A stretch of DNA of 64,000 nucleotides from Candidatus Latescibacterota bacterium (GTDB lineage Bacteria; Krumholzibacteriota; Krumholzibacteriia; LZORAL124-64-63). A program made the translations under genes and the position numbers. Location of the stretch: the NCBI GenBank assembly GCA_030658975.1, contig JAUSBL010000002.1:353-64352 (forward strand), given 5' to 3'. This document shows positions 1,989-35,599 of this stretch, piece by piece. How positions within the stretch are numbered: the stretch's first letter is position 1; each line of letters starts with the position of its first letter. The notes under the pieces are model-generated. The model was not told the DNA's origin and did not search any database. It saw only the letters and a list, made by a program, of their open reading frames with translations.

Positions 1989-2792
1989 ATGTACCACAAG
2001 CTATGTGCCGTTCTCTGCCTGGTCGCGGCCGCGGTCCTGCTGCCGCCCGCGACCGCCGCGGCGCAGGGCGGCCTCGAGGTCGCCCTCGTCGAGTGGGAGA
2101 CGCAGGGCGCCATGGTCGCCTTCCACATCCGGTTCCACAACGCGGGCACCCAGACCACCGGAACGGCGACGGGCGAACTCTTCTCGCAGGAGTACGGCGC
2201 CTTCCTGCCCGACTTCGGCGTCATCGGCACCTTCGATGTGCCGCCCATCCTGCCGGACAGCTTCTTCGACGTGTTCCTGGATGCCCCGCGGGAGGAACTG
2301 CCCCCCTCGGCCGCCGAGAACCTGCCCTGGCTCATGCCGACCGGGAACAAGGACTACTGCGGGCCCGACGATCACTGGGACGGCAACGTGGACATCATCT
2401 GGTTCTTCAACGGCCTCCCCGGCGGCCAGGTCAACGCCCACTTCGGCAATCTGCTGGTCTGCCCGGGCTTCGGCCACTCCTACATCCATGTGGTCACGAT
2501 GTGCCCGGGGTGGGCCGGCTGGTGGTTCGCCGGCGTGTGCGCCGGCTGGAACGTGGCGCTGGTGAACGAGGACCTGTCGCCGGCGCCCAACCCGGTGCCG
2601 CCGGGCTGGAGCGGGCACATCGCCGTGTCGGCCGACGCGACCGTGGCCTTCGGCGCGGTCTGCTGCTTCGCGCTCAACTTCAACTGCGGCGGCGTCGTGA
2701 CGCCGGTGAACCTCTGCGCGACGACCTGCGACTGCGGCGCGGTCGCCGACGAGCCGACGAGCTGGGGCGCCATCAAGAGCATGTACCGGTGA
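1989..2792 (+). CDS. Secreted Cys-rich hypothetical protein with C-terminal SWGxIKxxYR tail
   Basis: ATG at 1989, signal peptide MYHKLCAVLCLVAAAVLLPPATAAA, GC3-rich codon usage, ends EPTSWGAIKSMYR. Confidence 0.8.
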   Translation: MYHKLCAVLCLVAAAVLLPPATAAAQGGLEVALVEWETQGAMVAFHIRFHNAGTQTTGTATGELFSQEYGAFLPDFGVIGTFDVPPILPDSFFDVFLDAPREELPPSAAENLPWLMPTGNKDYCGPDDHWDGNVDIIWFFNGLPGGQVNAHFGNLLVCPGFGHSYIHVVTMCPGWAGWWFAGVCAGWNVALVNEDLSPAPNPVPPGWSGHIAVSADATVAFGAVCCFALNFNCGGVVTPVNLCATTCDCGAVADEPTSWGAIKSMYR

Positions 2793-2808
2793 GGATCCGG
2801 TGACGGAT

Positions 2809-2834
2809 GGGGCGCGGCCGCCGGTCCGCGCCCC
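2809..2834. terminator. Hairpin between convergent genes
   Basis: GGGGCGCGG-N8-CCGCGCCCC. Confidence 0.45.
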
Positions 2835-2837
2835 GCT

Positions 2838-4130
2838 TCAGGCGGGCTTGCCCAGCAGCCGGAACATCTCGCGCTTGTAGGCCTCGACACCGGGCTGGTC
2901 GAAGGGGTTCACCCCCAGCAGGCGCCCGCTGACCGCCACGGCCTTCTCGAAGAAGAAGAGCAGCCCGCCGACGCTCCACTCGTCCAGCGTCGCCAGTTCC
3001 ATGCCGATGGTCGGCAGCCCCCCCTCGCGGTGGGCGGCGCGCGTGCCGGCGAAAGCCCGGGCGTTGATGTCGTCCAGGGAGCGGCCCTCGAGGTAACCGA
3101 GGCCGTCGCCGCGATCCGCCGAGGCCGGCACGACCAGCGTGGAGTCGGTCTCGCGTACGGTCAGGAAGGTCTCGAACAGCTCGCGGCGGCCGTCCTGCAG
3201 GTACTGGCCGAGGCTGTGCAGGTCGGTCGTGAAGCGGCACGACGCCGGGAAGATGCCGCGGCCCTGCTTGCCCTCGCTCTCGCCGAAGAGCTGCTTCCAC
3301 CACTCCTGCAGCGGCCCGAGGTCGCTGTGGAAGGTGCTGAGCACCTCGGTCGTGAAACCGGCCTCGTAGAGCCGGTGGCGCGCCACGGCGTAGAGGTGGG
3401 CGGGGTTGTCGGCGAGCACGGGGTTCTCGCAGGTCGCCGCCATGGCGGCGGCCCCGTCCAGCAGGCGGCGGACGTCCAGCCCGGCGACCGCCAGCGGCCA
3501 CAGGCCCACCGGGGTCAGCACCGAGAAGCGACCGCCCACGTCGTCGGGGATCACATAGGTGTCCCAGCCCTCGGCGTCGGCCAGGGCGCGCAGGGCGCCG
3601 CGCGAGGCGTCGGTGATCGCGGTGATGCGGCGGCGCTCGCCCTCGCGGCCGTAGCGCTCCTGCAGCGCGGCGCGGAACAGGCGGAACGAAACGGCCGGCT
3701 CCAGTGTTGTACCGGACTTGGAGATCACGCACAGCCGCACGTCGCGTCCCTCGATGCGCCGCAGCAGGCGGCGCAGGCCGGCGGCGCACAGGTGCGTGCC
3801 GGCGAACAGGATCTCGGGTCCGGACGTGCGGTCGGTCAGGGCATGCAGGACGGCTTCGGCCCCCAGATAGGAACCGCCGATGCCGATCACCACCACGACG
3901 TCGCCGTCGCCCCTGGCCGCCTCGGCGGCGTCCCGCAGACGGTCCAGGTCGGGGCCGGCCGCGGTGCGCGGCAGGTCGAGCCAACCCAGGAAATCGGCGC
4001 CGGGACCCTCGCGGCGGGCCAGTTCCGCGCCGATCGTCCGCACGCGGTCGCCGCAGGCGTCGATCGCGCCGCGGTCGAGGAAGGGCTCCAGGCCCGTCAG
4101 ATCGAGGGAAAGGGCGCGGACGTCCGGCAT
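2838..4130 (-). CDS. pgi: Glucose-6-phosphate isomerase
   Basis: GIGGSYLG, ISKSGTTLE, GGRFSVLT, QLFGESEGK, NPFDQPGVEAYK; ATG at 4130 preceded by GGAGGA. Confidence 0.95.
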   Translation of the reverse strand: MPDVRALSLDLTGLEPFLDRGAIDACGDRVRTIGAELARREGPGADFLGWLDLPRTAAGPDLDRLRDAAEAARGDGDVVVVIGIGGSYLGAEAVLHALTDRTSGPEILFAGTHLCAAGLRRLLRRIEGRDVRLCVISKSGTTLEPAVSFRLFRAALQERYGREGERRRITAITDASRGALRALADAEGWDTYVIPDDVGGRFSVLTPVGLWPLAVAGLDVRRLLDGAAAMAATCENPVLADNPAHLYAVARHRLYEAGFTTEVLSTFHSDLGPLQEWWKQLFGESEGKQGRGIFPASCRFTTDLHSLGQYLQDGRRELFETFLTVRETDSTLVVPASADRGDGLGYLEGRSLDDINARAFAGTRAAHREGGLPTIGMELATLDEWSVGGLLFFFEKAVAVSGRLLGVNPFDQPGVEAYKREMFRLLGKPA

Positions 4131-4299
4131 CGGTTCCTCCCGGCGGCACCCGGCCGGAAACCTGGTCGCGGATTCCCGCAGGTGCGAAAGCTGCATGAGT
4201 GTATTAGCATTGCCCCTTGGCGCGTCGGGCGCGGCATCCTGCATTGTGAGCCAGACAACTCGAGGAGACAACTGGGTTCTTTGCGACCGCAACTCTGAA

Positions 4300-6465
4300 A
4301 TGCACACATCGCCCAAGACATACACCGGCCTGATCGCCACCTTGCTGTGCGTCGCGCTCCTGTCGCCCGTCGCGGGCTTCGCCGCGCCCGCCGCCGAAAA
4401 GGCCCTGGACGATCACATCCTGACTGACCAGAGTCCCGACTCCTGGGCGTACGAAGGCAAGGCGCGGGCCCTGGCCGCCGCCGCCGCCGCCGGCCGGATG
4501 ACCGAGATGACGCCCGAGCAGGCCGCGATCGACGTCCTGCACTACGTGCTGTACCTCGGCGTGGACATCGCGCAGGAAACCCTGAACGGTGCCTGCCTCA
4601 TCACCTTCACGCCGGTCGAGCCCGGCGTCGGCGAACTGGTCCTGGACTACGTCGCCGGAATGGGCGTCGGCACCGTCGGCGCGATCGACGGGACGTTCAC
4701 CCCGCTGGCCTGGGAGCGCGACGGCGACCTGCTGCGCACGCAACTGGCGACGCCCGTCTCGCCCGGCGACACGCTGACCGTCCTGGTGACGTTCGACGGC
4801 GCGCCGCAACCCGACGGGCTCTTCGGCTTCCAGTTCAAGACGCGGCCCGGCGGCGGGCCGATCGCCGCCAGCCTCAGCGAACCCTGGAGCGCCCGCTCCT
4901 GGTGGCCGTGCAAGGACTACCCCCTGGACAAGGCCACCTGCGACATCATGCTGACGGTGCCCGCGGGCCTGATCGGCGTCTCCAACGGCGCGCCGCTGGC
5001 CGAGCCGCCGCCGCATCCCTACCTGAACGGCGCCGCCGCCGCATCCCCGCCCGGCTCGCCCCTGCCGGATCGCAACGACGCGACGACCGACCTTTTCTGC
5101 TGGCGCGAGGCGCAGCCCATCAGCACCTACCACCTGTCGGTCGCCGTCAGCGACTACGTCGTGCTGCAGGAGACCTACCGCGGCCTGGACGGCAACCTCC
5201 AGCTGACCCATTTCGTCTATCCCGACCTCGTCGAGGAAGCCCTCGTCGATTTCGACAACCTCGGCGACATGATGGCCTTCTGCGAGGAGAAGTTCGGAGC
5301 CTACCCCTACCCGCACGAGAAGTACGGCATGGCCCTGTTCGAGTGGCAAGGCGCCATGGAGCACCCCACGGCCACCTCGTACGGCTCGCACTTCGTGCGC
5401 GGCGACCACTTCTTCGACACCATCGTCATGCACGAGCTGTCCCACCAGTGGTTCGGCAACAAGGTCACCTGCGCCGACTGGACCCACATCTGGCTGAACG
5501 AGGGTTTCGCGACCTACGTCGAGGGCCTGTGGCGCGAGCACAACTCCGGCCCGAACGCCCTGAAGTGGTTCATGAAGGCCCGCAGCATCTTCACGTGGTG
5601 GGACACCCCCCTGCTGCGGGAAGCCGGCGTCGCGGATCCCTGGTACTACTTCGATAATCTGGTCTACCACAAGGGCGCCTGGGTGCTGCACATGTTGCGG
5701 CGGGTGCTCGGCGACCAGATGTTCTTCGACTGCCTGCGCGATTACATCACGAACCGCGACCACACCCACACGACGGTGTCCACCGCGGACTTCGTCAGCT
5801 CGTGCGAGCGCACCAGCCGCCGGCAGCTCGACTGGTTCTTCGACCAGTGGCTCCTGCGCACCACCCACCCCGAGCTGTCCCTGTCCTGGCTCTACGAGAC
5901 GGAGCCCGGGCACAACGTGCTGCACATCGACCTGCACCAGACCCAGCCACCGGATCCCCTGACCGGCGACGCCCCCTTCATCTTCCCGCTGGACCTGACG
6001 CTCGCCACGGCCGCCGGGGACACCCTGGTGACCCTGTGGGTGGACCGGCGGGTCATGGACTTCCGGCTGCCCGTCAGCGCCGCGGTGACCGCAGTGACGG
6101 TCGATCCCAACGGATGGCTGCTGCACTCCGCCGACGTCATCGTCGCGGTGGGCGACAGCGGCGCGAGTCCGGGCCTGACCCTGCAGCCCCCCTTGCCCAA
6201 CCCCTTCCACGGCCGCGGCGTCCTGCGCTGGCGGACCGCCACCGAGAGCAGCGACCGCCTCGAGATCCACGACCTCCGCGGCCGCCTCGTCCACGAGCAC
6301 AGCCTGCCCCCCGCTCCCGCCGGCGAACGCTCCGCGATCTGGGACGGTCACGACCGGGACGGGCGCGCCTGCCCGGCCGGCGTCTACTTCGCCACCCTCG
6401 TCAGCAGCCCCCGGGACGGGACCGGGGCGGACCGCCGCACCGTCAAGATCACCCTCGCCCGTTGA
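4300..6465 (+). CDS. Secreted M1-family zinc aminopeptidase with C-terminal FlgD-Ig/T9SS-CTD-like domain
   Basis: GAMEH, HELSHQW...WLNEGFA and YHKG motifs; signal peptide; C-terminal PNPF...DLRGRLV...WDG...AGVYF. Confidence 0.9.
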   Translation: MHTSPKTYTGLIATLLCVALLSPVAGFAAPAAEKALDDHILTDQSPDSWAYEGKARALAAAAAAGRMTEMTPEQAAIDVLHYVLYLGVDIAQETLNGACLITFTPVEPGVGELVLDYVAGMGVGTVGAIDGTFTPLAWERDGDLLRTQLATPVSPGDTLTVLVTFDGAPQPDGLFGFQFKTRPGGGPIAASLSEPWSARSWWPCKDYPLDKATCDIMLTVPAGLIGVSNGAPLAEPPPHPYLNGAAAASPPGSPLPDRNDATTDLFCWREAQPISTYHLSVAVSDYVVLQETYRGLDGNLQLTHFVYPDLVEEALVDFDNLGDMMAFCEEKFGAYPYPHEKYGMALFEWQGAMEHPTATSYGSHFVRGDHFFDTIVMHELSHQWFGNKVTCADWTHIWLNEGFATYVEGLWREHNSGPNALKWFMKARSIFTWWDTPLLREAGVADPWYYFDNLVYHKGAWVLHMLRRVLGDQMFFDCLRDYITNRDHTHTTVSTADFVSSCERTSRRQLDWFFDQWLLRTTHPELSLSWLYETEPGHNVLHIDLHQTQPPDPLTGDAPFIFPLDLTLATAAGDTLVTLWVDRRVMDFRLPVSAAVTAVTVDPNGWLLHSADVIVAVGDSGASPGLTLQPPLPNPFHGRGVLRWRTATESSDRLEIHDLRGRLVHEHSLPPAPAGERSAIWDGHDRDGRACPAGVYFATLVSSPRDGTGADRRTVKITLAR

Positions 6466-6539
6466 CATCGCCCGCGCGGGGCGCATCCTTGGGGCTGACC
6501 CGCGGCCCCCGGCTCCCATCCCTCGTCGACGGAGACCCC

Positions 6540-7781: not shown

Positions 7782-7788
7782 TCCCCGC

Positions 7789-10136: not shown

Positions 10137-11207
10137 TCACCGATACAGGCTCTTGACCGCCCCCCAGCTCCGATCCTCGTTCGCCGCGGCCGTCGGTTGG
10201 AGGCCCGTCACCAACAGGTCGATCTCGTACTCGTAGGGCGTGGCGCCGGTGGGCGACATCGCACTGGCCGGCAGGATGTACAGCCGGACGACCGTGCCGG
10301 GATCCACAGCCACGTCGAAGCTGCCGGGTTCGCCGCGGCCGCCGTGCGCCGTGGCCAGGATATCCGGGTCGGAGCAGTCGTCGGACATCAGCGCCAGGAC
10401 GGAGGTCGTCCAGTCGGCGTCGAACTCGCAGTGCAGCGATCCTTCCGGTCCCACCGTCACTTCCAGCCAGTCGGTGTCGAAGTCGAGCCCGTCGGTCCCG
10501 ATGCGCCAGCCGGACTTCACGCACATGTGGACGGCTCCGTCGAGACCGCCGGCCAGCTCCTGGAAGAGCAACGACGAGGTGTTGCAGCCGCTGTTGTAGA
10601 GGTCCTGCGTGCCGTTCGCCAGGGGGGGCTCCCCCTCGGCCCGGATGCCGGGCGGGCAGTCCATGTCGTAGAACGAAGCCGCGTCGACGTCGAGCACGTA
10701 GTCGCCGGCGTCGTCGTCGTAGCCGTCGATCACGATGTAGTAGGTCGTCAGGCCCGAGAGTTCGAGAAATTCGATCTTCGACGCGAACGGCAGGCAGGCC
10801 GGATCGCCCGGCATGTAGAAATCGTCGCTGCACGCGACGACCTCGCCGGTGTCGTCGTAGACGAAGACCTTGGTGTCGTAGTCCGAGTGGCAGAGGTCGA
10901 TCGAGATCGGGCCGCTCGAAGTCGGCGTGTAGGTGTAGACCACGTCGGGCGACTGGCTGCCTTCGAAGGGGCAGGCCTCGTCGTAGTCGTCGACGGCGCC
11001 GAGCGTCGTGCCGCTGTCCGAGTACGGCAGCGAGAGGATCTCCACGGCGGTCGCCATCGTGTCGCCGCCGACCCGCGACGAGGCGGGCGCGGGGGCGGTC
11101 GGTCCGCCGCCGTGGCGGGGCTTGGCGGAGAACGGGTCGGCGGCGGCCGGGGCGGCCATGGCCGCGCCGATCAGCAGCAGGGCGGGCAGCAGCAGCTTCG
11201 CATGCAT
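10137..11207 (-). CDS. Secreted acidic protein (PPC-like domains), paralog 1, with WG tail
   Basis: ATG at 11207 after AGGAGA; signal peptide; GGDT..TAV.I..LPY.D.G.T...DYDEACP..SPDVVY; ends DRSWGAVKSLYR. Confidence 0.8.
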   Translation of the reverse strand: MHAKLLLPALLLIGAAMAAPAAADPFSAKPRHGGGPTAPAPASSRVGGDTMATAVEILSLPYSDSGTTLGAVDDYDEACPFEGSQSPDVVYTYTPTSSGPISIDLCHSDYDTKVFVYDDTGEVVACSDDFYMPGDPACLPFASKIEFLELSGLTTYYIVIDGYDDDAGDYVLDVDAASFYDMDCPPGIRAEGEPPLANGTQDLYNSGCNTSSLLFQELAGGLDGAVHMCVKSGWRIGTDGLDFDTDWLEVTVGPEGSLHCEFDADWTTSVLALMSDDCSDPDILATAHGGRGEPGSFDVAVDPGTVVRLYILPASAMSPTGATPYEYEIDLLVTGLQPTAAANEDRSWGAVKSLYR

Positions 11208-11304: not shown

Positions 11305-12357
11305 CTACCGGTACGCGGCCTTGATCTCACCCCAGCTCGACGCCTCGTTCGCCGTGGTCGTCGCCTGGCCCGTCACGGTCAGGTGGAGGTCGTACTCCAG
11401 GGGCAGGATGAAGCCGGGATCGACTTCGGGCGACGGGGACAGCACGATCCACACCGGCGTGCCCGGGGCGAGCGGGATGTCCAGCACGGCGACCTCGCCT
11501 GGTACCGCCGCGACGAAGCCGTAGTACTCGGCGAACTCGCAGCTGGTCGCCAGCACGACGAGCTCCGATGGCCACTCCGTCACCAGTTCGCAGTGGAGCT
11601 GCCCGTCTGGACCGACGGCGGTCGCGATCCAATCGAATTCGCGCGCGCTGCCGCCGGGGATGCCGTTCCAGCCGGAGCGGAAGCAGGCGAAGGTCGTGCC
11701 GGCGGGGTCGATGCCGAGCTTCTGGAAGCGGGCCGGCGGGTTCGCGCAGAAGCAGCCGCAGTTGTACGCGTCGTCGATCCCGTACACCATCGGCGGCTCG
11801 CCTTCGACCTGGGCGCCGTCGGGGCAGTCCAGCTCGGGGCTGTCGGTGACGGACACCGACAGGGCGTAGTCGCCGCTGTTGCCGCCGTAGCCGTCGATGA
11901 TGATGTAGTAGGGGATGCCAGCCTCGAGCAGCAGGACGTCGATCCGCGAGTCCAGCCCGCTGCACGGCGTTTCCGCGTAGGGGTTGTCGTCGTTGCAGGC
12001 CACCAGGTTCCGCAGGTAGTCGTAGACGAAAACGCGGGTGTCGTAGCCCGAGCCGCAGAGGTCGATTGCGACGTACGTGTCGAACGACTGCTTGATGGCG
12101 TAGACCACGTCCGGCGAATCGCTGCCGTCCCAGGGGCAGATCTCGTCGTAGTCGTTGTTCGCACCGGCGGTGGAGCCCGTGTCGGCGTAGGGCAGCGTGA
12201 AGATGCCCACGGCGGTCTCGATGGTGTCGCCGCCGATGCGCGGGACGGCGGTCGGCGTCCCCGGCGCCGCGAGCCGCGTCTTGGCGGGTGCTGCGGGGCC
12301 GGCCGCGGCCGCGGCCGCGAGGAACAGGACCGTGCAGGCGAGGGCTGTCGTTTTCAT
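11305..12357 (-). CDS. Secreted acidic protein (PPC-like domains), paralog 2, with WG tail
   Basis: AAGGAG RBS; signal peptide; collinear similarity to 10137..11207; ends ASSWGEIKAAYR. Confidence 0.8.
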   Translation of the reverse strand: MKTTALACTVLFLAAAAAAGPAAPAKTRLAAPGTPTAVPRIGGDTIETAVGIFTLPYADTGSTAGANNDYDEICPWDGSDSPDVVYAIKQSFDTYVAIDLCGSGYDTRVFVYDYLRNLVACNDDNPYAETPCSGLDSRIDVLLLEAGIPYYIIIDGYGGNSGDYALSVSVTDSPELDCPDGAQVEGEPPMVYGIDDAYNCGCFCANPPARFQKLGIDPAGTTFACFRSGWNGIPGGSAREFDWIATAVGPDGQLHCELVTEWPSELVVLATSCEFAEYYGFVAAVPGEVAVLDIPLAPGTPVWIVLSPSPEVDPGFILPLEYDLHLTVTGQATTTANEASSWGEIKAAYR

Positions 12358-12557
12358 CGCCGTGGCTCCTTCGTGGGCGACCGCGAGGATCGTACCACGG
12401 CGGCGGCGGGTGTCCAGAGCCCCATCGGAACGATCCGATTTTGTATTCTGGTTCTCAATGTGTTATCATTAATCAACTTTGGGGCGGATTCGCCCGCCGC
12501 CCCAATAGTCAGACCCGGCATCCGCCTGCCCGGATCCTCACCCGAAGGACGTACCCG

Positions 12558-14567
12558 ATGACCCGCTTTCGCCCACTGCTCGCGCTCGCCGCCCTGTTGC
12601 TGTTCGCCGCACCCTGCCTGGCCCAGAGCCTGGATGTCGGCGGCTGGAAGCTCGAACAGGCGAACTCCGCCCAGACCTACACGATCCCGGCCGGCACCGT
12701 GGTGCCGGCGGGCGGTTACCTCATCGTGGCGCGCGACGCGACCGCGGCCGCGTTCGCGACCTACTACGGGGTCACCCTCGGCAGCAACGTGGTGTTCCTG
12801 AACTCGGCGGCCACGTTCCCCTTCATCAACGGGGACGAGACGTACACCCTGAGGAACGCGGCGAACGGCGTCGAGGACGGGCCTACCCCCGCGCTCACCA
12901 ACGAGGTGCGCGCCTACCACCGGCTGGATCCCGAGGCATCGCCCTGGACCGTCATCAACACCGCCCCGACCCCGGGCTCCGGTGTGGAGGCTCCCGACGC
13001 CGTGATGTCGGGCCTGGTGATCAGCGAAGCGAACAACCCCGCCAGCTACGCCTACGAGTACATCGAGCTGTACTACGACGGCTCGACCGGCACCTCGAAC
13101 CAGCACCCCGTCATCTCGTCGATCCAGCACGCACCCGTCGCCCCGTCCGACGGCGACGACGTCACGATCACCGCGACGGTCACCGACGCCGACGGCGCCG
13201 TCGACGTGGTCTGGTGCTGGTCGCGCACGGGCGCCGGCTCGTTCCTGCCCACGGTCATGACCGCCCAGGGCGGCGGCCAGTACGCCGCGACCTTCGCGAA
13301 CCAGGTCGGCAACACGGTCCTGCAGTACTACGTCTGGGCGCGGGACGACGAGGGCGCCGAGTCCCTGAACCCGGCCAACGCCCCGGCGGGCTACTTCTCC
13401 GTCGCGATCGAGGGCGTCGTGGTCGGCGGCAAGGTCGTCCTCTTCGACCACATGCACGCCCAGGACGCCGGCTCCAACGGCAACTGGCGCGTGGACGACA
13501 ACCATCCCAACCCGCTGCCGGCCACCCCGACGAGCGAAACCTCCTGGAGCGGCCAGCTGTCGAGCTGGGGCTACGAGCTCTGGCTCGCCGGCAACACCAT
13601 CCGCAGCAACACCTCGGCGATCACGGCGGCCCAGCTGGCCGACGTCGACCTGCTGGTGATCCCGGAGCCGCAGGCCCCGTTCACGGCGGCCGAGATCGAG
13701 GCCGTGCGCCAGTTCGTCTTCGCCGGCGGCTCGCTCTTCGTGGTGGCCGACCACAACGGCAGCGACCGCGACGGCGACGGCTGGGACAGCCCCAGCATCT
13801 TCGGCGGCTACTCCGTGCCGCACATCACGGTGCCCCCGACCAACGACACCGAGACCTTCTGCGGCGCCCTCTTCGGTCTGCACTTCCACGTGAAGGACGA
13901 GGGCAACAACGCGATCACCGGCACCTTCGCCAACGTGAACGACGACCCGGCCAACCCGGTGATCCACGGCCCCTACGGCGAGGTGGCGGCCGTCATCTAC
14001 CACGTCGGCAACGTGATGAGCCTGTGGCCGACCGCCAACCCCCACCTCTCGGACGTGGGCGCCCTGATCAGCAAGAACGAGGGCTCGCCCCACGTCGCCG
14101 CCTGGTCGCGCTACGGTCAGGGCAAGATCGTGGGCTACGGCGACTCCTCGAGCACCGCCGACGGCACCGACAGCGAATCCCACGAGAACAACTGGACCGA
14201 GGCCGGCTCGGACAACCGCGAGTTCTTCCTGAACGCCAGCGCCTGGCTGCTGGCCTCCGACGCCACCGCGGTCGGCGAGCTGCCGCTCAACCCGGGCCTC
14301 GACCTGCGGGTGCGGCCCAACCCGTTCAACCCGCAGACGAGCATCGCCTTCACGCTGCCGGCCGAGGGGCCCGCCCGCGTGGCCGTCTACGACCTGCAGG
14401 GACGCCTGGTGCGCACGCTGCACGAGGGCGACCTGGCCGCCGGTCCCCACGCCCTGGCCTGGGACGGCCGCAACGACGGGGGGCGCGCCGCCGCCAGCGG
14501 CGTCTACCTCGTGCGGGCGGCGGGGGGCGGGTTCGTGAACATCACCAAGGCGGTCCTGGCGCGGTAG
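12558..14567 (+). CDS. Secreted lamin-tail-domain protein with Ig-like and GldG/DUF4350-like regions and FlgD/T9SS-like CTD
   Basis: DVGGWKL..YTIPAGTVVPAGGYLIV (LTD), VLFDHMH..DLLVIPEP..FV..GGSL..ADH, C-terminal PNPFNP..WDGRN..ASGVY. Confidence 0.75.
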   Translation: MTRFRPLLALAALLLFAAPCLAQSLDVGGWKLEQANSAQTYTIPAGTVVPAGGYLIVARDATAAAFATYYGVTLGSNVVFLNSAATFPFINGDETYTLRNAANGVEDGPTPALTNEVRAYHRLDPEASPWTVINTAPTPGSGVEAPDAVMSGLVISEANNPASYAYEYIELYYDGSTGTSNQHPVISSIQHAPVAPSDGDDVTITATVTDADGAVDVVWCWSRTGAGSFLPTVMTAQGGGQYAATFANQVGNTVLQYYVWARDDEGAESLNPANAPAGYFSVAIEGVVVGGKVVLFDHMHAQDAGSNGNWRVDDNHPNPLPATPTSETSWSGQLSSWGYELWLAGNTIRSNTSAITAAQLADVDLLVIPEPQAPFTAAEIEAVRQFVFAGGSLFVVADHNGSDRDGDGWDSPSIFGGYSVPHITVPPTNDTETFCGALFGLHFHVKDEGNNAITGTFANVNDDPANPVIHGPYGEVAAVIYHVGNVMSLWPTANPHLSDVGALISKNEGSPHVAAWSRYGQGKIVGYGDSSSTADGTDSESHENNWTEAGSDNREFFLNASAWLLASDATAVGELPLNPGLDLRVRPNPFNPQTSIAFTLPAEGPARVAVYDLQGRLVRTLHEGDLAAGPHALAWDGRNDGGRAAASGVYLVRAAGGGFVNITKAVLAR

Positions 14568-15793: not shown

Positions 15794-16564
15794 ATGACCA
15801 CGATGCTCGAGACACGACGAGTCGCCGCGATGGCGGCCCTGCTCCTGATCCTGGCGACCTCGTGCTGCGGCGCCGCCGAGGTGCGGCTGGCCGACGGCCG
15901 CACGCTCACCGGCACGCTGAGGCCGATCGACGACGCCACGTACCTGCTGCAGACCGACGACGCGCTCTTCGAGCTGGAGGGCAGCCAGATCCGCGAAGTC
16001 GACGGCCACCGCGAGCTGCCGCGGCCCGGGGAGACGCGCCTGGTGCGCTCCTCCTGCTACGAGGTCCTGCGCGCCGACGGCATCGCCGAGACCTGGAACA
16101 CCATCCACGTCGAGAACGGCGGCCGCGCGCTTCAGACCCGCGTCGAGTGGGGCGTCGCCCCCCACGAGATGGAGACGTTCCGCACGCTGAAGGTCGTGGA
16201 CCCCTGGGGCAACGCGCTGGCCCACCGTTTCGAGCCCCGGCCGGGCAGCGACGTCCAGAGCGTGATCGTCGAGCTCGCGGTGCCCGTCCTGCCAGGCGAG
16301 AGCGTCGAGCTGGCGACCAGCACGATCCGCCCGCGCAGCTCCGTCAGCGACGGCGACCTGTGGACCTGCACCTACCCCGGCGACTTCTCCGAAGACCGCC
16401 TCTACAGCCGCCTGCTGCGCCTGCCGCCGGGGGCCGAGGTCGTCTCGGTCGAACCCGAGGTCCGTGTCCACGAGCACGACGGCGCCTCGTTCGTGAACTG
16501 GCGGCGCTACTACCCGAAGGGGTCGACGTACCCGCTGACGGTGAAGTACCGGCTGCCGGGCTGA
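15794..16564 (+). CDS. Secreted hypothetical protein in the ECF operon
   Basis: AGGAGG RBS, signal-peptide-like N-terminus, EVRLADGRTLTG motif. Confidence 0.7.
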   Translation: MTTMLETRRVAAMAALLLILATSCCGAAEVRLADGRTLTGTLRPIDDATYLLQTDDALFELEGSQIREVDGHRELPRPGETRLVRSSCYEVLRADGIAETWNTIHVENGGRALQTRVEWGVAPHEMETFRTLKVVDPWGNALAHRFEPRPGSDVQSVIVELAVPVLPGESVELATSTIRPRSSVSDGDLWTCTYPGDFSEDRLYSRLLRLPPGAEVVSVEPEVRVHEHDGASFVNWRRYYPKGSTYPLTVKYRLPG

Positions 16565-16746
16565 CCGGGCCGATGCCGGGAGGGTCGGATCGCGATGCCG
16601 GCGCCGGTCGCCGGCATCGCGTTTTTCTTCCCATGACGAGGCGATCATGTATCATCGGCGCCATGCACGAACCCGCCCCCGCCATCGGGGAGGATCCACC
16701 GACCATCACCCGATCCCATGGTCTTCCACGGAGGGAAGGTACCGCC

Positions 16747-19700: not shown

Positions 19701-19824
19701 GATCGGTTCGGCCGTCTGGTCGGGTCGCGACGCGCAGGGCCGCTCGGTTCCCTCGGGCGTCTACGTGGCGAGGCTCGAGGCGGCGGGCGTCGTCGCGACG
19801 CACAAGCTCGTCCTGCTGAAGTAG
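16747..19824 (+). CDS. Secreted LVIVD-repeat (multi beta-propeller) protein with FlgD/T9SS-like CTD
   Basis: About 20 repeats of AYVA...GL(Q/L)(I/V)(V/I)DVSDP..P; signal peptide; PNPFNP..WSGRD..SGVY. Confidence 0.9.
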   Translation: MPRLTMFAVALAVLLPAAGDVLAIDWDCPDDTRHLRWTASLPLGYGARDLAIVGATAWVAGGDGSLYAVDVADPLAPAVVGSLFTGGAAIAVVARDGFAYVAGGDEGLQIVDVGDPLAPALAGSLDLPGYCENLVLDGGCALVAAGDQGLLIVDVSDPAAPALLGSVATSGWALNVAAAGTWAYIADASGRLQAVDLADPSAPVLAGWAETPESPQDVAIAGGRAFVACGAAGVAVYDLADPAAPVLIEVTGVPGQARALLMEIDLCWVAAGTGGACAVSTADPAALQVLLGLDTPGDTRAVALGDAHVLLIDETGGLQVLARWRTADPQIVGQLLFPSLGIFGVTAFGENYALAGGGYAGLLVIDTTVASSPTVVATADTPGMAEYVFVAGDLAYIADRGAGLAIVDLSDPLSPTLLSSIDTPYSATRVVVEGDLAYVSDMNGLQIIDVSDPVNPFNVGSLTGRCDALETVIHGNYAYVESSPESLQVIDVSDPALPRIVESIRIRYLSAIANDGPWLYLGTGNSQGPNFFIMDTTDPTHPVQVSSLDAGRCVTDIDLTGGIAWLAGGMDLVAVNVSDPAAPMIMDRAPTSNYLLYLDVAGDRAYATHSYGTGEFRLVVADLNLGTTLPTTLATLDIPGDARAVELAGDYAFVADGYDGLQVLDVGDPSAPVLVASADTPDFAHGLDVADGHAYLADFGSGLQVFDVGDPSAPALVGAVDLPGETLGVAVAGGYAYAGCGPAGLFVVDVSDPALPQVVGAVDTPDWATGVGCFGDYVYVADGHSGLFVIDVADPASPAIVGSLDLPEAAVDLEVRWPLVYVAGHWAGLLIVDVSDPAAPHVVGSYDTPDIARDVVVAGGYAYVAEETGSVQVIDITQPTAPTFVAGLTAPPISYGIATAGDLVMVACGEAGVVTARRQCLADVTATPEASPPRPVRFASPYPNPFNPRTTLSFALEAPGMVELTVHDLAGREVARLVDGLRPAGIGSAVWSGRDAQGRSVPSGVYVARLEAAGVVATHKLVLLK

Positions 19825-21662: not shown

Positions 21663-22616
21663 CTAGTACAGGCTCTTGACCTGGCCCCAGCTCATTTCCT
21701 CGGTCTCGACCGGGATGGTCAGGTACGAGGTCAGGCCGTTGGCGGTCCAGGCCACGGCGCTGTTGTCGGCCACCTTGGGCGCGTCGTAGTTGGGATGGTT
21801 GACGATCTGCAGCTCGGCGTTGACCATCAGGTTGTTGAAGGTCGTCATCTGCAAGGTGTACAGCAGGCCCGGGTCGGTGCCGAACACGGGCAGGTAGCTG
21901 TACAGGCCGATTTCCACGCCGGTCGTCAGGCTGCCGAAGATCAGGCCATCGACCGGGGTCGCGCTCAGGATCATGATGCGCGGGTCCAGGACCAGCTTGA
22001 AGGCGGCGCCGCCGACCATCATCTCGGCGTTGCGGATCATGATCCAGGCGTTGTGGATCTCGGTGAAGCCACCGTTCTGGGTCGACACGGTCTCGATGCC
22101 GTCCTCGTCCCAGAACACGCCGATCTCGGGCGTCGGGCGCAGCGTGATGCTCGAGGTCAGGCCGTCGGCCGGGAACAGGATGGCCGACGAGTTCGCCAGC
22201 ATGGGCGTGTCGTAGTCCGGGTCGGCGACGATGGTCTGGTGCGAGTTCACGATCATCGTCGGCGAGAACACCTGGATGTGGCAGATCGAGATGGGATCGT
22301 CGCCGAACTGCGCGATCGGGTTGTAGAGGCCGATCTCGGCGCCGGTCAGCAGCGTGCCGAACACCAGGCCGTCGGCCCAGGTCTCGCTGACGATCATGAA
22401 GCCGCCCTCGGACTCCATCTTGAAGGCCGCTCCGCCGATCAGCAGGTCGGAGTTGTTGATCAGGACGTAGCCGTCATAGACCGATCCGGGTTCGCCGACG
22501 AGCTGGGCGGTGTTGCCCTCGGTGTCGAAGAACAGGCCGATCGTCGCGGTCGCCATCGCGGACGAGGCCAGGCCGAGCATCAGGACGCCGGCCAGCAGGC
22601 TGTAACGAGTCTTCAT
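21663..22616 (-). CDS. Secreted protein with two tandem homologous domains and WG tail
   Basis: Signal peptide; internal repeat IG.F.D..G...GGAAFK...DGL.FG.L.TG.EIGLY; ends EMSWGQVKSLY. Confidence 0.85.
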   Translation of the reverse strand: MKTRYSLLAGVLMLGLASSAMATATIGLFFDTEGNTAQLVGEPGSVYDGYVLINNSDLLIGGAAFKMESEGGFMIVSETWADGLVFGTLLTGAEIGLYNPIAQFGDDPISICHIQVFSPTMIVNSHQTIVADPDYDTPMLANSSAILFPADGLTSSITLRPTPEIGVFWDEDGIETVSTQNGGFTEIHNAWIMIRNAEMMVGGAAFKLVLDPRIMILSATPVDGLIFGSLTTGVEIGLYSYLPVFGTDPGLLYTLQMTTFNNLMVNAELQIVNHPNYDAPKVADNSAVAWTANGLTSYLTIPVETEEMSWGQVKSLY

Positions 22617-31008: not shown

Positions 31009-31155
31009 GGCACGCTCGTGGTTGAGGACATGCCGAACTGGGCGATCGGAGAAGAAGATCGGCAGGCGATCCTCACGGTTGAGCAGAAAATGCGGTGATC
31101 GGCAGAGGGGTGCCCGGGGCCCTGGGCGGTCCCCTTCGGCCTTCAGGTCGCGGGA

Positions 31156-31752
31156 TTACTGCGAATACAGGTTTTTGACCTCGCCCCAGGTCCCCTGCTC
31201 GTCGGCGTCGCCGTTGTTCAGGGTGAACACGGGCCGGTCGAAGTCGCCGCTGCAGACGGTCGCGGGCGTATTGACCCCGAGCGTGTGGAGGTAGCCGGGC
31301 GTCCCGTCGGGGAAGCTGGCCGAACCGGGCGCCGGCCCCACCTTGAAGAACAACGGGCCCTCTCCCAGCAGCTTCACGGTCATGTAGAGCAGCGGCACCA
31401 TGCCGGCGCTGTTCGGCATCAAGCCGTCCACGCCCAGTCCCACCAGAAAATCGTCAGTATCGTTGTCGAAATCCATACCGGCGGTCAGTGTCCAGTTGCC
31501 CACATAGGTGGCCGACCCTTCGACGGTCACGCGGGCTTCCCAGCCCAGAACCGGCGATCCCGAAGGCTGGGCGAGCACCAGATAGACGGTGCAGGACCCC
31601 GGCACGGCCACCTCGACATTCCCGCCGCCGGGCCCGGACGTAACGTCGGTGCAGATGCAGAACACGTCGGACTCGGCCGAAGCGGCGGCGGCCGCGCCGA
31701 GCGTCAGCACGAAGACGAGTACGAGGGCGGGGCGTGGGTAACGCATCGGCAT
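31156..31752 (-). CDS. Secreted single-domain protein (FCIC-domain) with WG tail
   Basis: Signal peptide; VFCICTD..PSG..VLGWEAR..GYLHTLG.NTPATVC.GDF; ends QGTWGEVKNLYSQ. Confidence 0.8.
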   Translation of the reverse strand: MPMRYPRPALVLVFVLTLGAAAAASAESDVFCICTDVTSGPGGGNVEVAVPGSCTVYLVLAQPSGSPVLGWEARVTVEGSATYVGNWTLTAGMDFDNDTDDFLVGLGVDGLMPNSAGMVPLLYMTVKLLGEGPLFFKVGPAPGSASFPDGTPGYLHTLGVNTPATVCSGDFDRPVFTLNNGDADEQGTWGEVKNLYSQ

Positions 31753-31852
31753 CCCTCCGGCGTCGGGCGGTGGCGGTCCGCGATTACCTTACAGAAAAGA
31801 GGGCGGCGGGACAAGCCGCAGCTGCCCCGCCGCCCCGCGACCGCCCGGCGGC

Positions 31853-34174
31853 TCAGCGCACCAGGCTCAACCTCACCACCGCGCCCGACGCGGCCCCGTC
31901 CACGTACAGCGCCGCGAAGTACGCGCCGCTGGCGACGTCGCGGCCCCGCTCGTCGGTGCCCAGCCACGTGACGCGGTTCTCCCCTGCCACGCCGTCGATC
32001 GCCCCGAGCCGCTTCACCACGCGGCCCTGCACGTCGTGGATCCGCACCTCGGCCCTGCCGGCCCGCGGCAGCGTCAGCACGATCTCGGTGCGCGGGTTGA
32101 ACGGGTTCGGCACCGCGCGCAGCGCGCAGCGCCCCGACGGGATCTCCGGCGCGCCGGTCGACAGGTCCGGCGTGCGCAGGCGCACGATCACCGGTACGGC
32201 GCCGACGTCGAGGGTCAGGCTCGACTGTGCACGCATCGACATCACCGCGACGCGGTTCTGGTGGGGCAGGTAGACCTGCAGGTCCTCGTGGCCGCCCCAC
32301 TCCGCGGCGTCCCAGCGCAGCGTGACCGGACCGGGCGCAGGCGCGGTGACCACGAGGTCCCAGGCCACGTCCGCTTCGGTCGCCGCGCGGTAGTCGGCCG
32401 TGAGCTGGTCTCCGGTGCTGAGGTCCAGGGCCGAGCCGTCGAGCCACAGTTCGGGCCGGGACACGGCGGCCGGCGCGCGCGGCGGGCGGGGCTGGTCCCA
32501 GGCGGGGTCGAAGCCGTCGTTGGCCTTTTCGAGGCGCCCGACGGTCAGGGTCTCGGGGCTGCCGTCGAGGCCGAGGCTCAGGCGCCAGTTGAGGTCGTTG
32601 GGCTCGAAGGCGGGAGGGGCGGACTTGTCGGCGCCGATGTTGGTGTAGTGGAACCACAGGCTGACGCCGTTCATGTAGGCGGGCACCCAGTAACCGTGCC
32701 AGGGATGGAGAGTGGTCCGGGCCACGTAGGAGCCCGTCGAGTTCTGATAGAAATAGACGTAGCTCCCGACGAGTCCCATCTGGACCGCCGTCGCGTAATC
32801 GTAGCGCGCGCCCTGGTACTCGACCGCGACATCGTTGAGGCTCATGACCGTCCACAGCGGCGCGCCGAGCAGGTTCCAGCCGTTGGCCAGGGGCAACAAG
32901 GCGCCGTTGAGGTCACGCATCCCCTCCATCGTCCAGGTGATGGGGCTGGTCGCGCCCACCCAGTAGCCCCGGCCCTGCTGCATGGGGTCGGTCGACAGCA
33001 TCTGCTGGTAGCCCGTATTTCCGTTGTGGCCGTAGACGAACGCGGTGCTGGCGATGTCGTCCAGCAGCACGGAGCCGATGGTGCCCGGCGCGTCCGGCAG
33101 CAGGGGCATGCCCACCAGGGACCAGCCGGTCGGCAGCAGGAGTGACGTCGGACTGAGAGGTGGGATCTGGTTCGGCCCCACCAGCAATTCGAAATGACGG
33201 ACCTGCCCGGGCACGGAATTGAACGAATAGCTGAGGGCCGTTTCCCAGAGAAGCGCAACCTCGCCCGTGTCGAGGTCGATCAGTGTCATCACCCAGTTCG
33301 ACGCCTGATTGAAGCTGGGCTGGAACGTAAGCGTCGCGACACCGCTCTGGTCGGTCAGGAAGCGCAACGGCCAGGTCTTGACCGTGGCCGACGGCACATA
33401 GGAGGCCCGGATGTCCGTCCGGAAGAACTCGCCCAGCGGCGAAGCCCACTCCGCATGCGGGAAGCACAGCGAAACGTAGCCCGCAGGCGGGGCCGGCGGT
33501 TCGGGGATGTCCAGGTTCGGATCCAGCCCGTCCGTCGCGGTCTCCCCCATGCCGGCGACATTGTTCAGATCACGGTACGCGCCGAGCGCCGCCGCGACCG
33601 TCAATGTGAATTCGTCCTCGAAGGGCGGAGGATTGTTCCCGTTGATGCTGAAGACCGGCGAATTGAAATCGCCGCCGCACACGGTCGCCGGCGTGTTGTA
33701 ACCGAGCGTGTGCACGTAGCCGGGGGTGCCCTGGGGAAAGGAGACCGATCCCGGGATCGGCCCGATGAAGAATTCGATGCTGGCGCTGCCGTTCACGATG
33801 ATGGCCTGCATCGAACCCAGCACGATGACGTCCTGCGCGTTGGGGACCAGCGGCGAAGCCCCGTTGCCGATGACGAAATCCTGGGGGTCGCTGTCGACGT
33901 CCAGTCCGGACATCATCCACGTGCCGATCATGCTCGTGGCATTCGTCTGGGTGATCCTGGCCTCCCAGGCCAGAACGCGGCCGCCGCTCGGATTGAGAAG
34001 GCACAGGTAGATGTTCGTCGGCACGAAGATCGGGATGTCGGCGTTGCCGCCGCAGCTGGCGGGGGCCGTCGGGTCGATGCAGATGCAGAAGGCGTCCTGC
34101 TGCGCGAGGGCGCCGCCGGCCGTGGTCAGCAGGACCATGGCGATCGTCAGCAGGAAGCGGATCGAAGTTCGCAT
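31853..34174 (-). CDS. Secreted multidomain protein (FCIC-domain, two D.PxPP modules) with FlgD/T9SS-like CTD
   Basis: GGAGG RBS; signal peptide; QQDAFCICIDP; ATDGLDPNLDIPEPP; GWNLLGAP; PNPFNP..WLGTD..ASGAY. Confidence 0.85.
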   Translation of the reverse strand: MRTSIRFLLTIAMVLLTTAGGALAQQDAFCICIDPTAPASCGGNADIPIFVPTNIYLCLLNPSGGRVLAWEARITQTNATSMIGTWMMSGLDVDSDPQDFVIGNGASPLVPNAQDVIVLGSMQAIIVNGSASIEFFIGPIPGSVSFPQGTPGYVHTLGYNTPATVCGGDFNSPVFSINGNNPPPFEDEFTLTVAAALGAYRDLNNVAGMGETATDGLDPNLDIPEPPAPPAGYVSLCFPHAEWASPLGEFFRTDIRASYVPSATVKTWPLRFLTDQSGVATLTFQPSFNQASNWVMTLIDLDTGEVALLWETALSYSFNSVPGQVRHFELLVGPNQIPPLSPTSLLLPTGWSLVGMPLLPDAPGTIGSVLLDDIASTAFVYGHNGNTGYQQMLSTDPMQQGRGYWVGATSPITWTMEGMRDLNGALLPLANGWNLLGAPLWTVMSLNDVAVEYQGARYDYATAVQMGLVGSYVYFYQNSTGSYVARTTLHPWHGYWVPAYMNGVSLWFHYTNIGADKSAPPAFEPNDLNWRLSLGLDGSPETLTVGRLEKANDGFDPAWDQPRPPRAPAAVSRPELWLDGSALDLSTGDQLTADYRAATEADVAWDLVVTAPAPGPVTLRWDAAEWGGHEDLQVYLPHQNRVAVMSMRAQSSLTLDVGAVPVIVRLRTPDLSTGAPEIPSGRCALRAVPNPFNPRTEIVLTLPRAGRAEVRIHDVQGRVVKRLGAIDGVAGENRVTWLGTDERGRDVASGAYFAALYVDGAASGAVVRLSLVR

Positions 34175-34247
34175 GGATGACCTCCGTTACGGGGATGGGT
34201 CCGCCGCATGACGCGGCTGGCCGGTTCGGATACCGATTCGATGGCGA

Positions 34248-34826
34248 TCAGCGATCGTAGAGCTTCTTGATCTCGCCCCAGGCGGCTGTGTCCGCCGCGA
34301 CCGGGTCGTCGGACGTCAACTCCAGCAGCAGCGTCGTGACGGGCGCCAGCGCCACGAAGGGCAGCTGCGCCGGCAGTTCGACGCGGTACGCCCGCTCCGG
34401 GGGCGCCAGGATCGTCACGGCCAGCGGGTACTGCGCGCCGATCTCTGCGGCGAAGTCCAGCAGCAAGGGCCGGTTGACCTGGTCGGTCTCCAGGACCAGT
34501 TCCCAGGTCTCGGTCTGATCCATGAAGATCTCCGAGGGGCGCAGCTCGTGGCGCCAGCGGTTCGGCAGGACTTCCGGAGCGTCCGGCATCACGAAGGACA
34601 GGCCCAGATAACCGCCGGGGGGCGGCGGCGGCTCCGGCAGATCGTAGCCGTCCGGGCCCATCAGGGCGTCGTCGTGCACGCCGAAGCGGTGGATGTCGGA
34701 GACGACCGCGTCGCCGTGCGCCTGCAGCGTGATGACGATCGACTGGGAAAGCGCCGTTGCGGGGGCGAGAACGGCGAACCAGGCCAGGAGCGCGAGGGGC
34801 GGGATGACCAGACGCCGATGATGCAC
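34248..34826 (-). CDS. Secreted single-domain protein (D.PEPPPP module) with WG tail
   Basis: AGGAG RBS, signal peptide, FGVHDDALMGPDGYDLPEPPPPPGGYL; ends TAAWGEIKKLYDR. Confidence 0.78.
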   Translation of the reverse strand: MHHRRLVIPPLALLAWFAVLAPATALSQSIVITLQAHGDAVVSDIHRFGVHDDALMGPDGYDLPEPPPPPGGYLGLSFVMPDAPEVLPNRWRHELRPSEIFMDQTETWELVLETDQVNRPLLLDFAAEIGAQYPLAVTILAPPERAYRVELPAQLPFVALAPVTTLLLELTSDDPVAADTAAWGEIKKLYDR

Positions 34827-34951
34827 GACCGACTCCTATCCGCGTGGGTGCGGAGGCGTCCGCGGCGGTTCGGGTGTCATATCGGGCGATTTGACCCGCC
34901 GATGTTACCAAATCGAAAGCCAGATTACAATACTACGCTGTGAGGGGCTGT

Positions 34952-35599
34952 TCACCTGCCCGCAGACGGGCCCGCCGAATACGCACTCTTGATCGCACCC
35001 CAGGTATCGACGTCCGCCGCGACGACGCCATTGATGCTGAACACCGGCTCGTCGAAGTCGCCGCTGCAGACGGTGGCTGGTGTGTTGAATCCCAGCGTGT
35101 GGACGTAGCCCGGAACGCCCTGGGGGAAACTGATGGAGCCGGGGATCGGGCCGACGAAAAAACTGACCGGGACGCCGTCATCCAGGACCCTGACCATCAT
35201 GGAGGCGAACGTGATGACGCCCGCTGCGTTCGGCTGCCAGGGCGCGGGGCAGGAGCCGACCACGAAATTCCCAGGCACGGAGTCGACATCCAAACCGCCG
35301 TTGAGGCACCACTCGCCAGAGATGGTATCGGCTCCTCTGTCGTCGGTCACTCGGGCTTCCCAGGCCAACACCTGATCCCCGCTGGGTTCGAGCAGGCACA
35401 GCCAGATGGGCGTCGGCACGCCGACGGGGATCACGGCATTGCCGCCGCAGGTGTTCGGGTCCGTGGGATCGAGGCAGATGCAGAAGGCGTCCTGCTGCGC
35501 CGAGGCGCCGCCGGCCGCCGCCAGCACCGCGATGACGAGAAGAGGGATGAACGGGATGCGGCTGTGCGTGAGAGCATTCCAAGGACGCCGATGATCCAC
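34952..35599 (-). CDS. Secreted single-domain protein (FCIC-domain) with WG tail
   Basis: GTG at 35599 after GGGAG; QQDAFCICLDP...; ends VDTWGAIKSAYSAGPSAGR. Confidence 0.78.
   Translation of the reverse strand: MDHRRPWNALTHSRIPFIPLLVIAVLAAAGGASAQQDAFCICLDPTDPNTCGGNAVIPVGVPTPIWLCLLEPSGDQVLAWEARVTDDRGADTISGEWCLNGGLDVDSVPGNFVVGSCPAPWQPNAAGVITFASMMVRVLDDGVPVSFFVGPIPGSISFPQGVPGYVHTLGFNTPATVCSGDFDEPVFSINGVVAADVDTWGAIKSAYSAGPSAGR

Follow-up and report, generated by a model that had tools for sequence, protein, structure and literature searches.

C-terminal sorting signals such as LPXTG, PEP-CTERM and the C-terminal domain (CTD) of type IX secretion systems (T9SS) have each opened a class of surface biology and supplied tags for protein engineering. 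Through the LPXTG/sortase A system, cohesin scaffoldins of Gram-positive cellulosomes are anchored by sortase. The beta-signal of outer-membrane proteins has an aromatic residue near the C-terminus, Braun's lipoprotein (Lpp) carries a C-terminal Lys (ending in ...YRK), and the choice-of-anchor families are named for occurring with differing sorting signals. T9SS cargo normally needs a CTD of 70–100 amino acids, and the short CTDs of Prevotella intermedia (40–51 amino acids) are reported as the shortest natural ones described (PMC11969387). These form a sheet of three strands in which motifs B, D and E are retained, are cleaved and glycosylated, and are modelled as binding PorV, and the last 22 residues of Hbp35 sufficed for secretion and attachment of GFP (PMC11969387). 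Here we examined a tail of about 16 residues that ends secreted proteins encoded in a 64,000-nucleotide stretch of DNA (hereafter the window) from Candidatus Latescibacterota bacterium (assembly GCA_030658975.1, contig JAUSBL010000002.1, positions 353 to 64,352). The tail is real, abundant, portable and outside current models, and it is very probably a C-terminal protein-sorting signal.

The base composition of the window is 71% G+C. In its six-frame translation the pattern WG.[IVLM]K..Y matched seven times, at 0, 1, 1, 1, 2, 2 and 8 residues before the stop, and no internal match was present. All seven open reading frames (ORFs) have a start codon followed by a classical Sec-type signal peptide. 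With signal peptide and tail removed, the seven passengers formed five BLAST families (protein 1; proteins 2 and 3; protein 4; proteins 5 and 7; protein 6; Table 1), and a Pfam and NCBIfam scan of the seven proteins matched no model at E ≤ 1. The initial annotation of this DNA had reported one C-terminal motif on seven secreted proteins of at least five families, and all seven were confirmed. The invariance of W, G, K and Y that it gave is true of the seven window tails; across the source genome it applies to K alone (65/65), and it does not extend to relatives, whose tails show W to F or L, G to S, T or D, and Y to F substitutions.

The source genome (3.23 Mb in 133 contigs, 92% complete) contains many more of these tails. 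Fifty-seven of 61 matches to the looser pattern WG..K..[YFW] lay no more than 12 residues from the stop. A hidden Markov model (HMM) built from 210 distinct tails identified 65 carriers, including W-S, F-G and I-G variants. Its full-length matches at 6.2 bits or more all lay within 11–12 residues of the stop, with none internal in the source genome, and lower scores were partial noise; internal occurrence, a check suggested in the initial annotation, was thus seen in none of the carriers, and the match was C-terminal in 65/65. As a control, the reversed DNA pattern gave 0–3 matches per genome compared with up to 74 for the real pattern. The resulting consensus is [VI]-[AP]-[NT]-E-x-x-[ST]-W-[GS]-x-[VI]-K-x-[LM]-[YF]-[RK]-COOH. 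Among the 65 tails, W occurs in 63, G in 56 (S in 9) and Y in 55 (F in 7, W in 3), and Lys is the only invariant position. [VI] precedes K in 60, E stands eight residues before K in 46, and V eleven residues before K in 43. Exactly one residue, mostly R, follows the aromatic in 48 tails and none in 6; the last residue is Arg in 41 and Lys in 7, and a few tails carry 5–12 extra C-terminal residues. The one tail seen with the Lys replaced (K to H; L197:4430-4894, + strand, ...SWGAVHSLYR) lies directly upstream of the PorU-like gene described below.

The tail lies 0–2 residues from the C-terminus in 59/65 carriers, and its residues are conserved to a degree typical of peptide-protein recognition. 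Both features would suit an uncleaved docking peptide that uses its free carboxylate and a W/K/aromatic face to bind a receptor on the surface or in the outer membrane non-covalently, and so tethers small proteins to the cell. The conserved upstream block [VI]-[AP]-[NT]-E (E in 46/65, V in 43/65), with a variable spacer between it and the core, resembles a processing site rather than part of such a ligand, and the tails with 5–12 additional residues argue against a strict reading of the carboxylate. Taken with the evidence on both sides given below, we consider docking without cleavage unlikely.

The carriers are small (median 230 amino acids, compared with 650 for CTD proteins) and diverse, their 65 passengers forming 44 single-linkage BLAST families of which 37 are singletons. 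A signal-peptide-like N-terminus was found on 64/65 carriers and on 157/400 control ORFs; as 39% of control ORFs pass, this crude heuristic supports enrichment only and makes no per-protein calls. Most of the 46 carriers from outside the window that were scanned against Pfam and NCBIfam had no family at all. The domains found were LTD (3), PPC (5–6), CBM20, Temptin_C/GEGP (2), DUF7451 (2) and Kre9_KNH, and two of the 46 matched choice_anch_E (79 bits, cut-off 23.8) and choice_anch_J (33.6 bits, cut-off 30). These are typical surface or extracellular modules.

Two pairs among the seven window proteins are related, and the tail might on that ground have been no portable signal but the conserved final element in a single family of folded domains. 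This is scarcely credible and was rejected: the 65 carriers of one genome include 44 unrelated passenger families, and similarity among them stops about 16 residues before the C-terminus, the span of tail conservation. An AlphaFold2 (AF2) model of one carrier (17-sequence alignment, overall pLDDT 67) consists of a beta-sandwich (pLDDT 70–83), a linker modelled with low confidence and, over the W...Y core, a short helix detached from the sandwich (pLDDT < 50). The tail therefore is not part of the passenger fold, and a short, detached segment would also be compatible with docking. The amphipathic helix that the initial annotation had proposed fared less well, appearing in this model at low confidence. 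Foldseek with the beta-sandwich returned cohesins for nearly all of the top ~30 matches (E about 1e-4, TM 0.35–0.5, for a model of pLDDT 67), and the ESM Atlas structural neighbours of this passenger include cohesin clusters (TM about 0.5). The label "cohesin-like" for tail protein 5 derives from this Foldseek search with one family member and from the ESM Atlas; the Pfam Cohesin HMM (PF00963) did not match the passenger family of the operon described below.

With Lys in 65/65 tails, an end consisting of an aromatic and then a basic residue, and a C-terminal position, the tail also recalls Lpp and, by its aromatic, the beta-signal. It could accordingly be imagined to act in the periplasm, where a PDZ or tail-specific protease or a chaperone would read it, or its Lys would be cross-linked to peptidoglycan as in Braun's lipoprotein. 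We regard such a role as quite improbable. The terminal residue is Arg in 41/65 and Lys in only 7/65, the conserved Lys being internal; the carriers are surface or extracellular modules (choice-of-anchor, CBM20, LTD, PPC, cohesin-like), small and soluble with beta-sandwich or enzyme-like character and not barrels; and their passengers are exchanged with a T9SS export domain. Across at least 118 foreign, 8 lone-tail and 20 orthologue loci, neither an L,D-transpeptidase nor a PDZ protease showed synteny with the tail genes.

We compared the tail with the long FlgD_ig/T9SS-type CTD of the same genome. An HMM of our own making counted 136 FlgD_ig-type CTD proteins, ending in [RK][KR]MxL[VL][KR], and none of the 65 tail carriers matched it; none of 53 tail proteins (the 7 of the window and the 46 others) matched a CTD model of Pfam or NCBIfam. 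The mutual exclusivity of tail and CTD noted in the initial annotation therefore holds for 65/65 carriers. Their passengers overlap: for 12/65 tail passengers a homologous stretch was found in CTD proteins (E ≤ 1e-5, 29–65% identity). In the window, a 773-amino-acid protein begins with a ~170-residue cohesin-like module that it shares with tail proteins 5 and 7 (aligned to tail protein 5, it is 41% and tail protein 7 48% identical), runs about 500 residues past it and ends in a FlgD_ig/T9SS-type CTD. On sequence comparison, the relation between this protein and the two tail proteins is an anchor swap, and the same sharing of a passenger module between tail and CTD was seen among ESM Atlas structural neighbours. 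Tail and CTD genes are also neighbours: 28/65 tail genes lie less than 2 kb from a CTD gene (mean 14.8 and maximum 24 in 500 randomisations), and at lone tail genes of tail-poor genomes a FlgD_ig cargo gene is directly adjacent in 5/8 loci and no more than two genes away in one other. A tag alternative to the T9SS CTD had been suggested before; strict C-terminal position, 44 families of signal-peptide proteins, 12/65 swaps and choice-of-anchor E and J domains among the carriers speak for it, with export and anchoring as its putative roles.

Among the models of Pfam and NCBIfam (release 20, June 2026), none for the CTD, LPXTG, PEP-CTERM, GlyGly-CTERM or other sorting signals matched the 53 tail proteins scanned. 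The tail has no transmembrane segment, and the earlier statements that it is not LPXTG, PEP-CTERM or GlyGly-CTERM were borne out by these results; coverage by an existing sorting-signal model, which the initial annotation had named as a refutation, was not found. Like the type A CTD (TIGR04183/PF18962; here FlgD_ig, PF13860), the tail is C-terminal, sits on Sec-exported surface proteins, is portable between passengers, ends in hydrophobic and basic residues ([VI]Kx[LM][YF][RK]), and occurs in genomes with SprA, PorV and PorU, in genetic association with a PorU-family peptidase. Like LPXTG, it is a short tag at the C-terminus of numerous surface proteins unrelated to one another, with a likely cysteine transpeptidase partner and cohesin-like clients, but it lacks the LPXTG motif, the membrane-spanning segment and the basic stop-transfer tail, and its candidate enzyme is of the C25 family and not a sortase, in a diderm envelope. 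PEP-CTERM/exosortase, GlyGly-CTERM/rhombosortase and MYXO-CTERM/myxosortase (10.1101/2023.06.07.544157) are likewise reported to place a small C-terminal sorting domain on many secreted proteins per genome, paralogous and unrelated, built there from a motif, a transmembrane helix and a basic cluster and cut by membrane-embedded enzymes. The tail has in common with these systems the choice-of-anchor domains among its carriers; it differs in having no transmembrane segment, and only about 12 residues follow its conserved E, including Lys and polar positions. Shorter still, lacking both an independent fold and motifs B, D and E, and matched by no model, the tail falls outside the known sorting-signal families, and it most plausibly works like a T9SS/PorU signal. 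A literature search, which included T9SS and secretion in Krumholzibacteriota, Eisenbacteria and Fibrobacter, found nothing in print on the tail or on PorU2 or PorU paralogues of the kind described below.

The core DNA pattern was present in 41/41 relatives and in 150/155 genomes (≥85% completeness) of the window's GTDB phylum. One genus, g33, had appeared to be a tail-free clade and was dropped as a negative control, since the strict pattern had missed its Y to F and G to S/T variants (...VAT[EQ]xxSW[GST]x[VI]KxLF[R]); with this apparent exception carrying variant tails, the tail is universal in the phylum. In a second phylum, 9/9 genomes had 18–53 stop-anchored tails, with 0 in the controls, and a third, tiny phylum had sparse variant tails (6 matches in G159 and 2 in another genome). 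A fourth phylum, around a Zixibacteria-titled genome, was essentially tail-free, with 0 stop-anchored tails in 46/51 genomes and 1 each in 5. Four of its genomes (G239, G255, G266 and G282) have one gene each that ends in ...WGKIK-x-L-F-R-stop, and the DNA is nearly identical in three of them. Possibly this is one conserved protein whose end resembles the tail, either as a relic or through transfer. When named genome records were scanned, at least 118 loci with the tail pattern emerged. Among those listed, 66 were unlabelled and the titles of the others read Eisenbacteria (22), Krumholzibacteri* (9), Fibrobacter(aceae) (9), Gemmatimonadota (5), Latescibacter* (2), Effluviviaceae (2), Zixibacteria (1), UBP1 (1) and Sulfurimonas (1). 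The spread over six or more phyla that such titles imply was rejected: the genomes checked, titled Fibrobacteraceae, Latescibacteria, UBP1 and Krumholzibacteria, belong to the window's GTDB phylum (identical coordinates). Public titles, including Eisenbacteria, disagree with the GTDB grouping at L051, L073, L085, L117, L149 and others; the title-discordant genomes that were checked share one phylum and class with the window, and ESM Atlas family members are mostly labelled Krumholzibacteriota. At the Sulfurimonas-titled locus (L080) the stringent DNA pattern matched and no tail ORF was extracted, so that a chance match or a contaminant contig is probable.

We searched the source genome and four relatives for T9SS machinery. 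All five have SprA, many PorV/PorQ-family barrels and a PorU-like sortase adjoining a PorV gene. In the source genome SprA scored 459 bits summed, eight PorV_fam paralogues were above cut-off, and the canonical PorU beside PorV scored 397 bits (cut-off 420). The PorV/PorQ-family barrels lie on contigs C24, C39, C133, C90, C85, C69, C21 and C15, an unusually large set with several members in very long open frames (1256–1679 amino acids); one gene (C133:73038-73964) and a tail gene are 1.6 kb apart. Each signal class might be served by a PorV paralogue of its own. The eight paralogues would also offer docking receptors: one of the PorV-family barrels, or a non-catalytic domain of the PorU-like protein, could be bound by an uncleaved tail.

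Besides the canonical PorU, the source genome encodes a distinct PorU-like paralogue of about 1400 amino acids (C7:44774-48976) beside tail-gene arrays. Three orthologues matched Peptidase_C25 (PF01364) with E values of 4e-46 (source genome), 2e-44 and 2e-45. They scored 150, 146 and 141 bits with the PorU model (NF033707, cut-off 420) and 51–85 bits with the PorU2 model (NF052324, cut-off 450; source genome 51), below both cut-offs. The paralogue shares with PorU and PorU2 the C25 domain, PorU-like N-terminal regions and a T9SS-type end, here of the FlgD_ig type; it is set apart by its sub-cut-off scores, by coexisting with a canonical PorU beside PorV, and by its operon with tail proteins. 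His960 and Cys1001 are invariant in 9/9 orthologues and, judging from the C25 family, would form the catalytic pair. A syntenic partner that is a peptidase with a catalytic pair predicted to be intact argues against an uncleaved docking peptide.

The operon encodes a dockerin-like protein of about 215 amino acids, then one to five cohesin-like tail proteins, then the C25 peptidase. In the source genome it occupies C7:50807-51475 (dockerin-like) and 44774-50744 (locus L191), and a paralogue of tail protein 4 lies on the same contig beside it; the arrangement was also found at L192–L194 and L196–L199. The dockerin-like protein has duplicated D-x-N-x-D-G-x-[IV]-x-L-S-D segments and an ...N-x-[SA]-C-P end. 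Three of nine such proteins matched Dockerin_1 (PF00404) below threshold (E 0.0012, 0.031 and 0.29; gathering score 22.9), and an AF2 model (pLDDT 47.6) was too poor for a fold search. Its gene is present in 17/20 loci and is single-copy in the source genome. The operon is possibly a cohesin-dockerin system in a diderm, uncultured phylum. As a cohesin-like client family is encoded with a dockerin-like protein, the anchored proteins may be scaffolds that recruit other proteins; this same context points to non-covalent assembly and so lends docking some support. At L067:4545-5645 and L131:5452-6552, a conserved 366-amino-acid protein is encoded between the tail genes and the PorU-like gene.

To quantify the association, we inspected 6 kb on either side of the orthologue in 20 genomes covering all nine families. 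Tail genes were found upstream of, and on the same strand as, the PorU-like gene in 14/20 genomes from 7/9 families (29 genes); only one was found downstream, in 1/20 genomes. When degenerate tails read by eye were counted, upstream tails were present in 17/20 genomes. The same arrangement occurs in the second GTDB phylum (G162 and G163). In G038, locus L195 was rejected as an orthologue (109 bits, no tails nearby), and the true orthologue at L210 has tails upstream. Clustering of non-tail neighbours in the at least 118 foreign loci (8 kb) gave no recurrent family beyond CTD-linked lumps.

A profile built from nine PorU-like orthologues separated the paralogue of the source genome (1954 bits) from the canonical PorU (249 bits) and all other proteins (<70 bits). 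At E ≤ 1e-100 an orthologue was found in 153/155 genomes of the window's phylum, whereas no genome of the essentially tail-free phylum (0/51) reached the orthologue score range, the best match there (281 bits) being about that of the canonical PorU. Tail-rich G163, G165 and G166, outside this sample, have an orthologue of 714–887 bits and a second gene of 180–290 bits. The essentially tail-free phylum has a PorU-family match (E ≤ 1e-30) in 47/51 genomes, nearly always single, together with FlgD-type CTD matches. Since it retains both, canonical components are insufficient to predict tails.

We think it somewhat probable that the tail is T9SS-linked. The initial annotation had raised a T9SS-like machine, and directional synteny with the PorU-like C25 gene and the joint absence of tail and orthologue from the essentially tail-free phylum favour this. 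That the PorU paralogue is the tail-processing enzyme is a tentative suggestion, drawn from sequence and gene neighbourhood. Combining the two, we infer an export route, cleavage, a cleavage site, covalent anchoring and a partnership with the PorU-like enzyme, in which the tail would cause small proteins exported by Sec to be displayed on the cell surface or attached to it, in place of the 70–90-residue FlgD_ig/T9SS CTD. The N-terminal signal peptide would carry the protein across the inner membrane. T9SS-type outer-membrane machinery would then recognise the free tail by its core, W-[GS]-x-[VI]-K-x-[LM]-[YF]-[RK]-COOH. Finally, the PorU-like C25 cysteine peptidase, exported via its own T9SS-type CTD, would cleave in or near [VI]-[AP]-[NT]-E and might transfer the new C-terminus to a surface acceptor, as PorU would. 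Of the explanations considered, we favour this minimal T9SS-linked surface-anchoring signal, processed by a PorU paralogue, at slightly less than even odds.

Several results weigh against the proposal. In the source genome the best GldK match reached 70 bits against a cut-off of 350 with a Bacteroidota-trained model, and the equally Bacteroidota-trained GldM model matched nothing there and was silent in control genomes too; with both undetected and the GldM search uninformative, a canonical trans-envelope T9SS is unconfirmed. The tail, at about 15–18 conserved residues, has no beta-sandwich or sheet and none of motifs B, D and E, and CTD models pass it over. Synteny failed in 3/20 genomes (both f2 genomes and the single f9 genome). 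G030 (97% complete) and G140 (89%) have tails and no orthologue match, G159 of the third phylum has its variant tails and a C25 match of only 54 bits, and G167, whose assembly is very fragmented, has 48 tails and a best match of 175 bits. Only about three independent lineages underlie the phyletic comparison, and greater evolutionary distance lowers bit scores. Moreover, synteny mainly concerns one passenger family, the cohesin-like one, and 59/65 tail genes of the source genome lie elsewhere; on this view the operon may serve as a dedicated cohesin/dockerin/protease unit and not as a general tail processor.

In a rival explanation, canonical SprA, PorV and PorU alone handle a minimal T9SS tail, the PorU-like peptidase being unrelated to it and its operon a specialised cohesin/dockerin/protease module. 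SprA, and PorU adjoining PorV, are present in 5/5 genomes tested, clustering of tail genes and CTD cargo genes is observed, tails occur in G159 although no gene there is closely orthologous to the paralogue, and T9SS signals are reported to tolerate shortening (PMC11969387). The same explanation would have to account for a phylum that keeps its single PorU-family gene (47/51) and FlgD-type CTDs with almost no tails, for tail genes upstream of the PorU-like gene in 14–17/20 genomes and downstream in 1/20, and for canonical recognition of a tail without CTD motifs B, D and E. We place it on the unlikely side.

In its fullest form, processing by the PorU paralogue would make a peptide of about 15 residues a complete sorting signal of a new class. 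A dedicated PorU-paralogue sortase would recognise it and, in two or more uncultured phyla, anchor some 2% of the proteome covalently to the cell surface. Clients would include cohesin-like scaffolds recruiting dockerin-bearing partners, a diderm, T9SS-linked counterpart of sortase-anchored cellulosome-like assemblies. We consider this extended version doubtful. The tail itself marks 65 proteins in a 3.2-Mb genome, is universal in the two sampled phylum-level groups (155 and 9 genomes) and goes unseen by current annotation models, with almost every carrier called "hypothetical". If the PorU-like peptidase is the tail sortase, T9SS-type attachment would have branched outside Bacteroidota into parallel pairs of signal and enzyme, the tail would define how small a natural signal for such surface attachment can be, and sequence would suffice to predict surface proteomes in little-known phyla of soil and sediment. 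For curators, the tail provides an HMM target and a testable enzyme-substrate pair.

Table 1. Tail proteins and CTD proteins of the window (positions in the 64,000-nucleotide stretch)
Feature	Position	Strand	Remarks
Tail protein 1	1989..2792	+	267 aa from signal-peptide start; frame open from 1011; singleton passenger family
Tail of protein 1	2742-2789; stop 2790-2792	+	
M1 peptidase with FlgD_ig CTD (T9SS-type cargo)	3880..6465	+	start uncertain
Tail protein 2	10137..11207	-	356 aa; tail 10140-10187; in 11-member passenger family of source genome
Tail protein 3	11305..12357	-	350 aa; tail 11308-11355; same passenger family as protein 2
LTD-domain protein with FlgD_ig CTD	12288..14567	+	
LVIVD-repeat protein with FlgD_ig CTD	15862..19824	+	
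Tail protein 4	21663..22616	-	317 aa; tail 21666-21710, Y directly before stop
Tail protein 5	31156..31752	-	198 aa; cohesin-like beta-sandwich passenger; tail 31159-31209
773-aa secreted protein	31853..34174	-	FlgD_ig at residues 705-753
Tail protein 6	34248..34826	-	192 aa; tail 34251-34301; singleton passenger family
Tail protein 7	34952..35599	-	215 aa from signal-peptide start; cohesin-like passenger; tail 34955-35023, 8 residues past Y
CARDB protein with FlgD_ig CTD	35767..40236	-	1489 aa
Hydrolase-like protein with FlgD_ig CTD	63097..63954	-	

A tail protein gene adjoins an M1-family peptidase gene in the window (1989-2792 and 3880-6465), in G038 (L165) and in G132 (L170). The M1-family neighbour has a FlgD_ig CTD in the window and in G038, and none was detected in G132; the adjacency could reflect a recurrent functional pair. 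Further along the window (40776-45102), a CHAT-domain/TPR protein (902 amino acids), a DUF4384 protein and an ECF-type sigma factor are encoded in a row. Downstream of this row, an AcrB-family gene (45099-49574) has an open frame with about 390 extra N-terminal residues.

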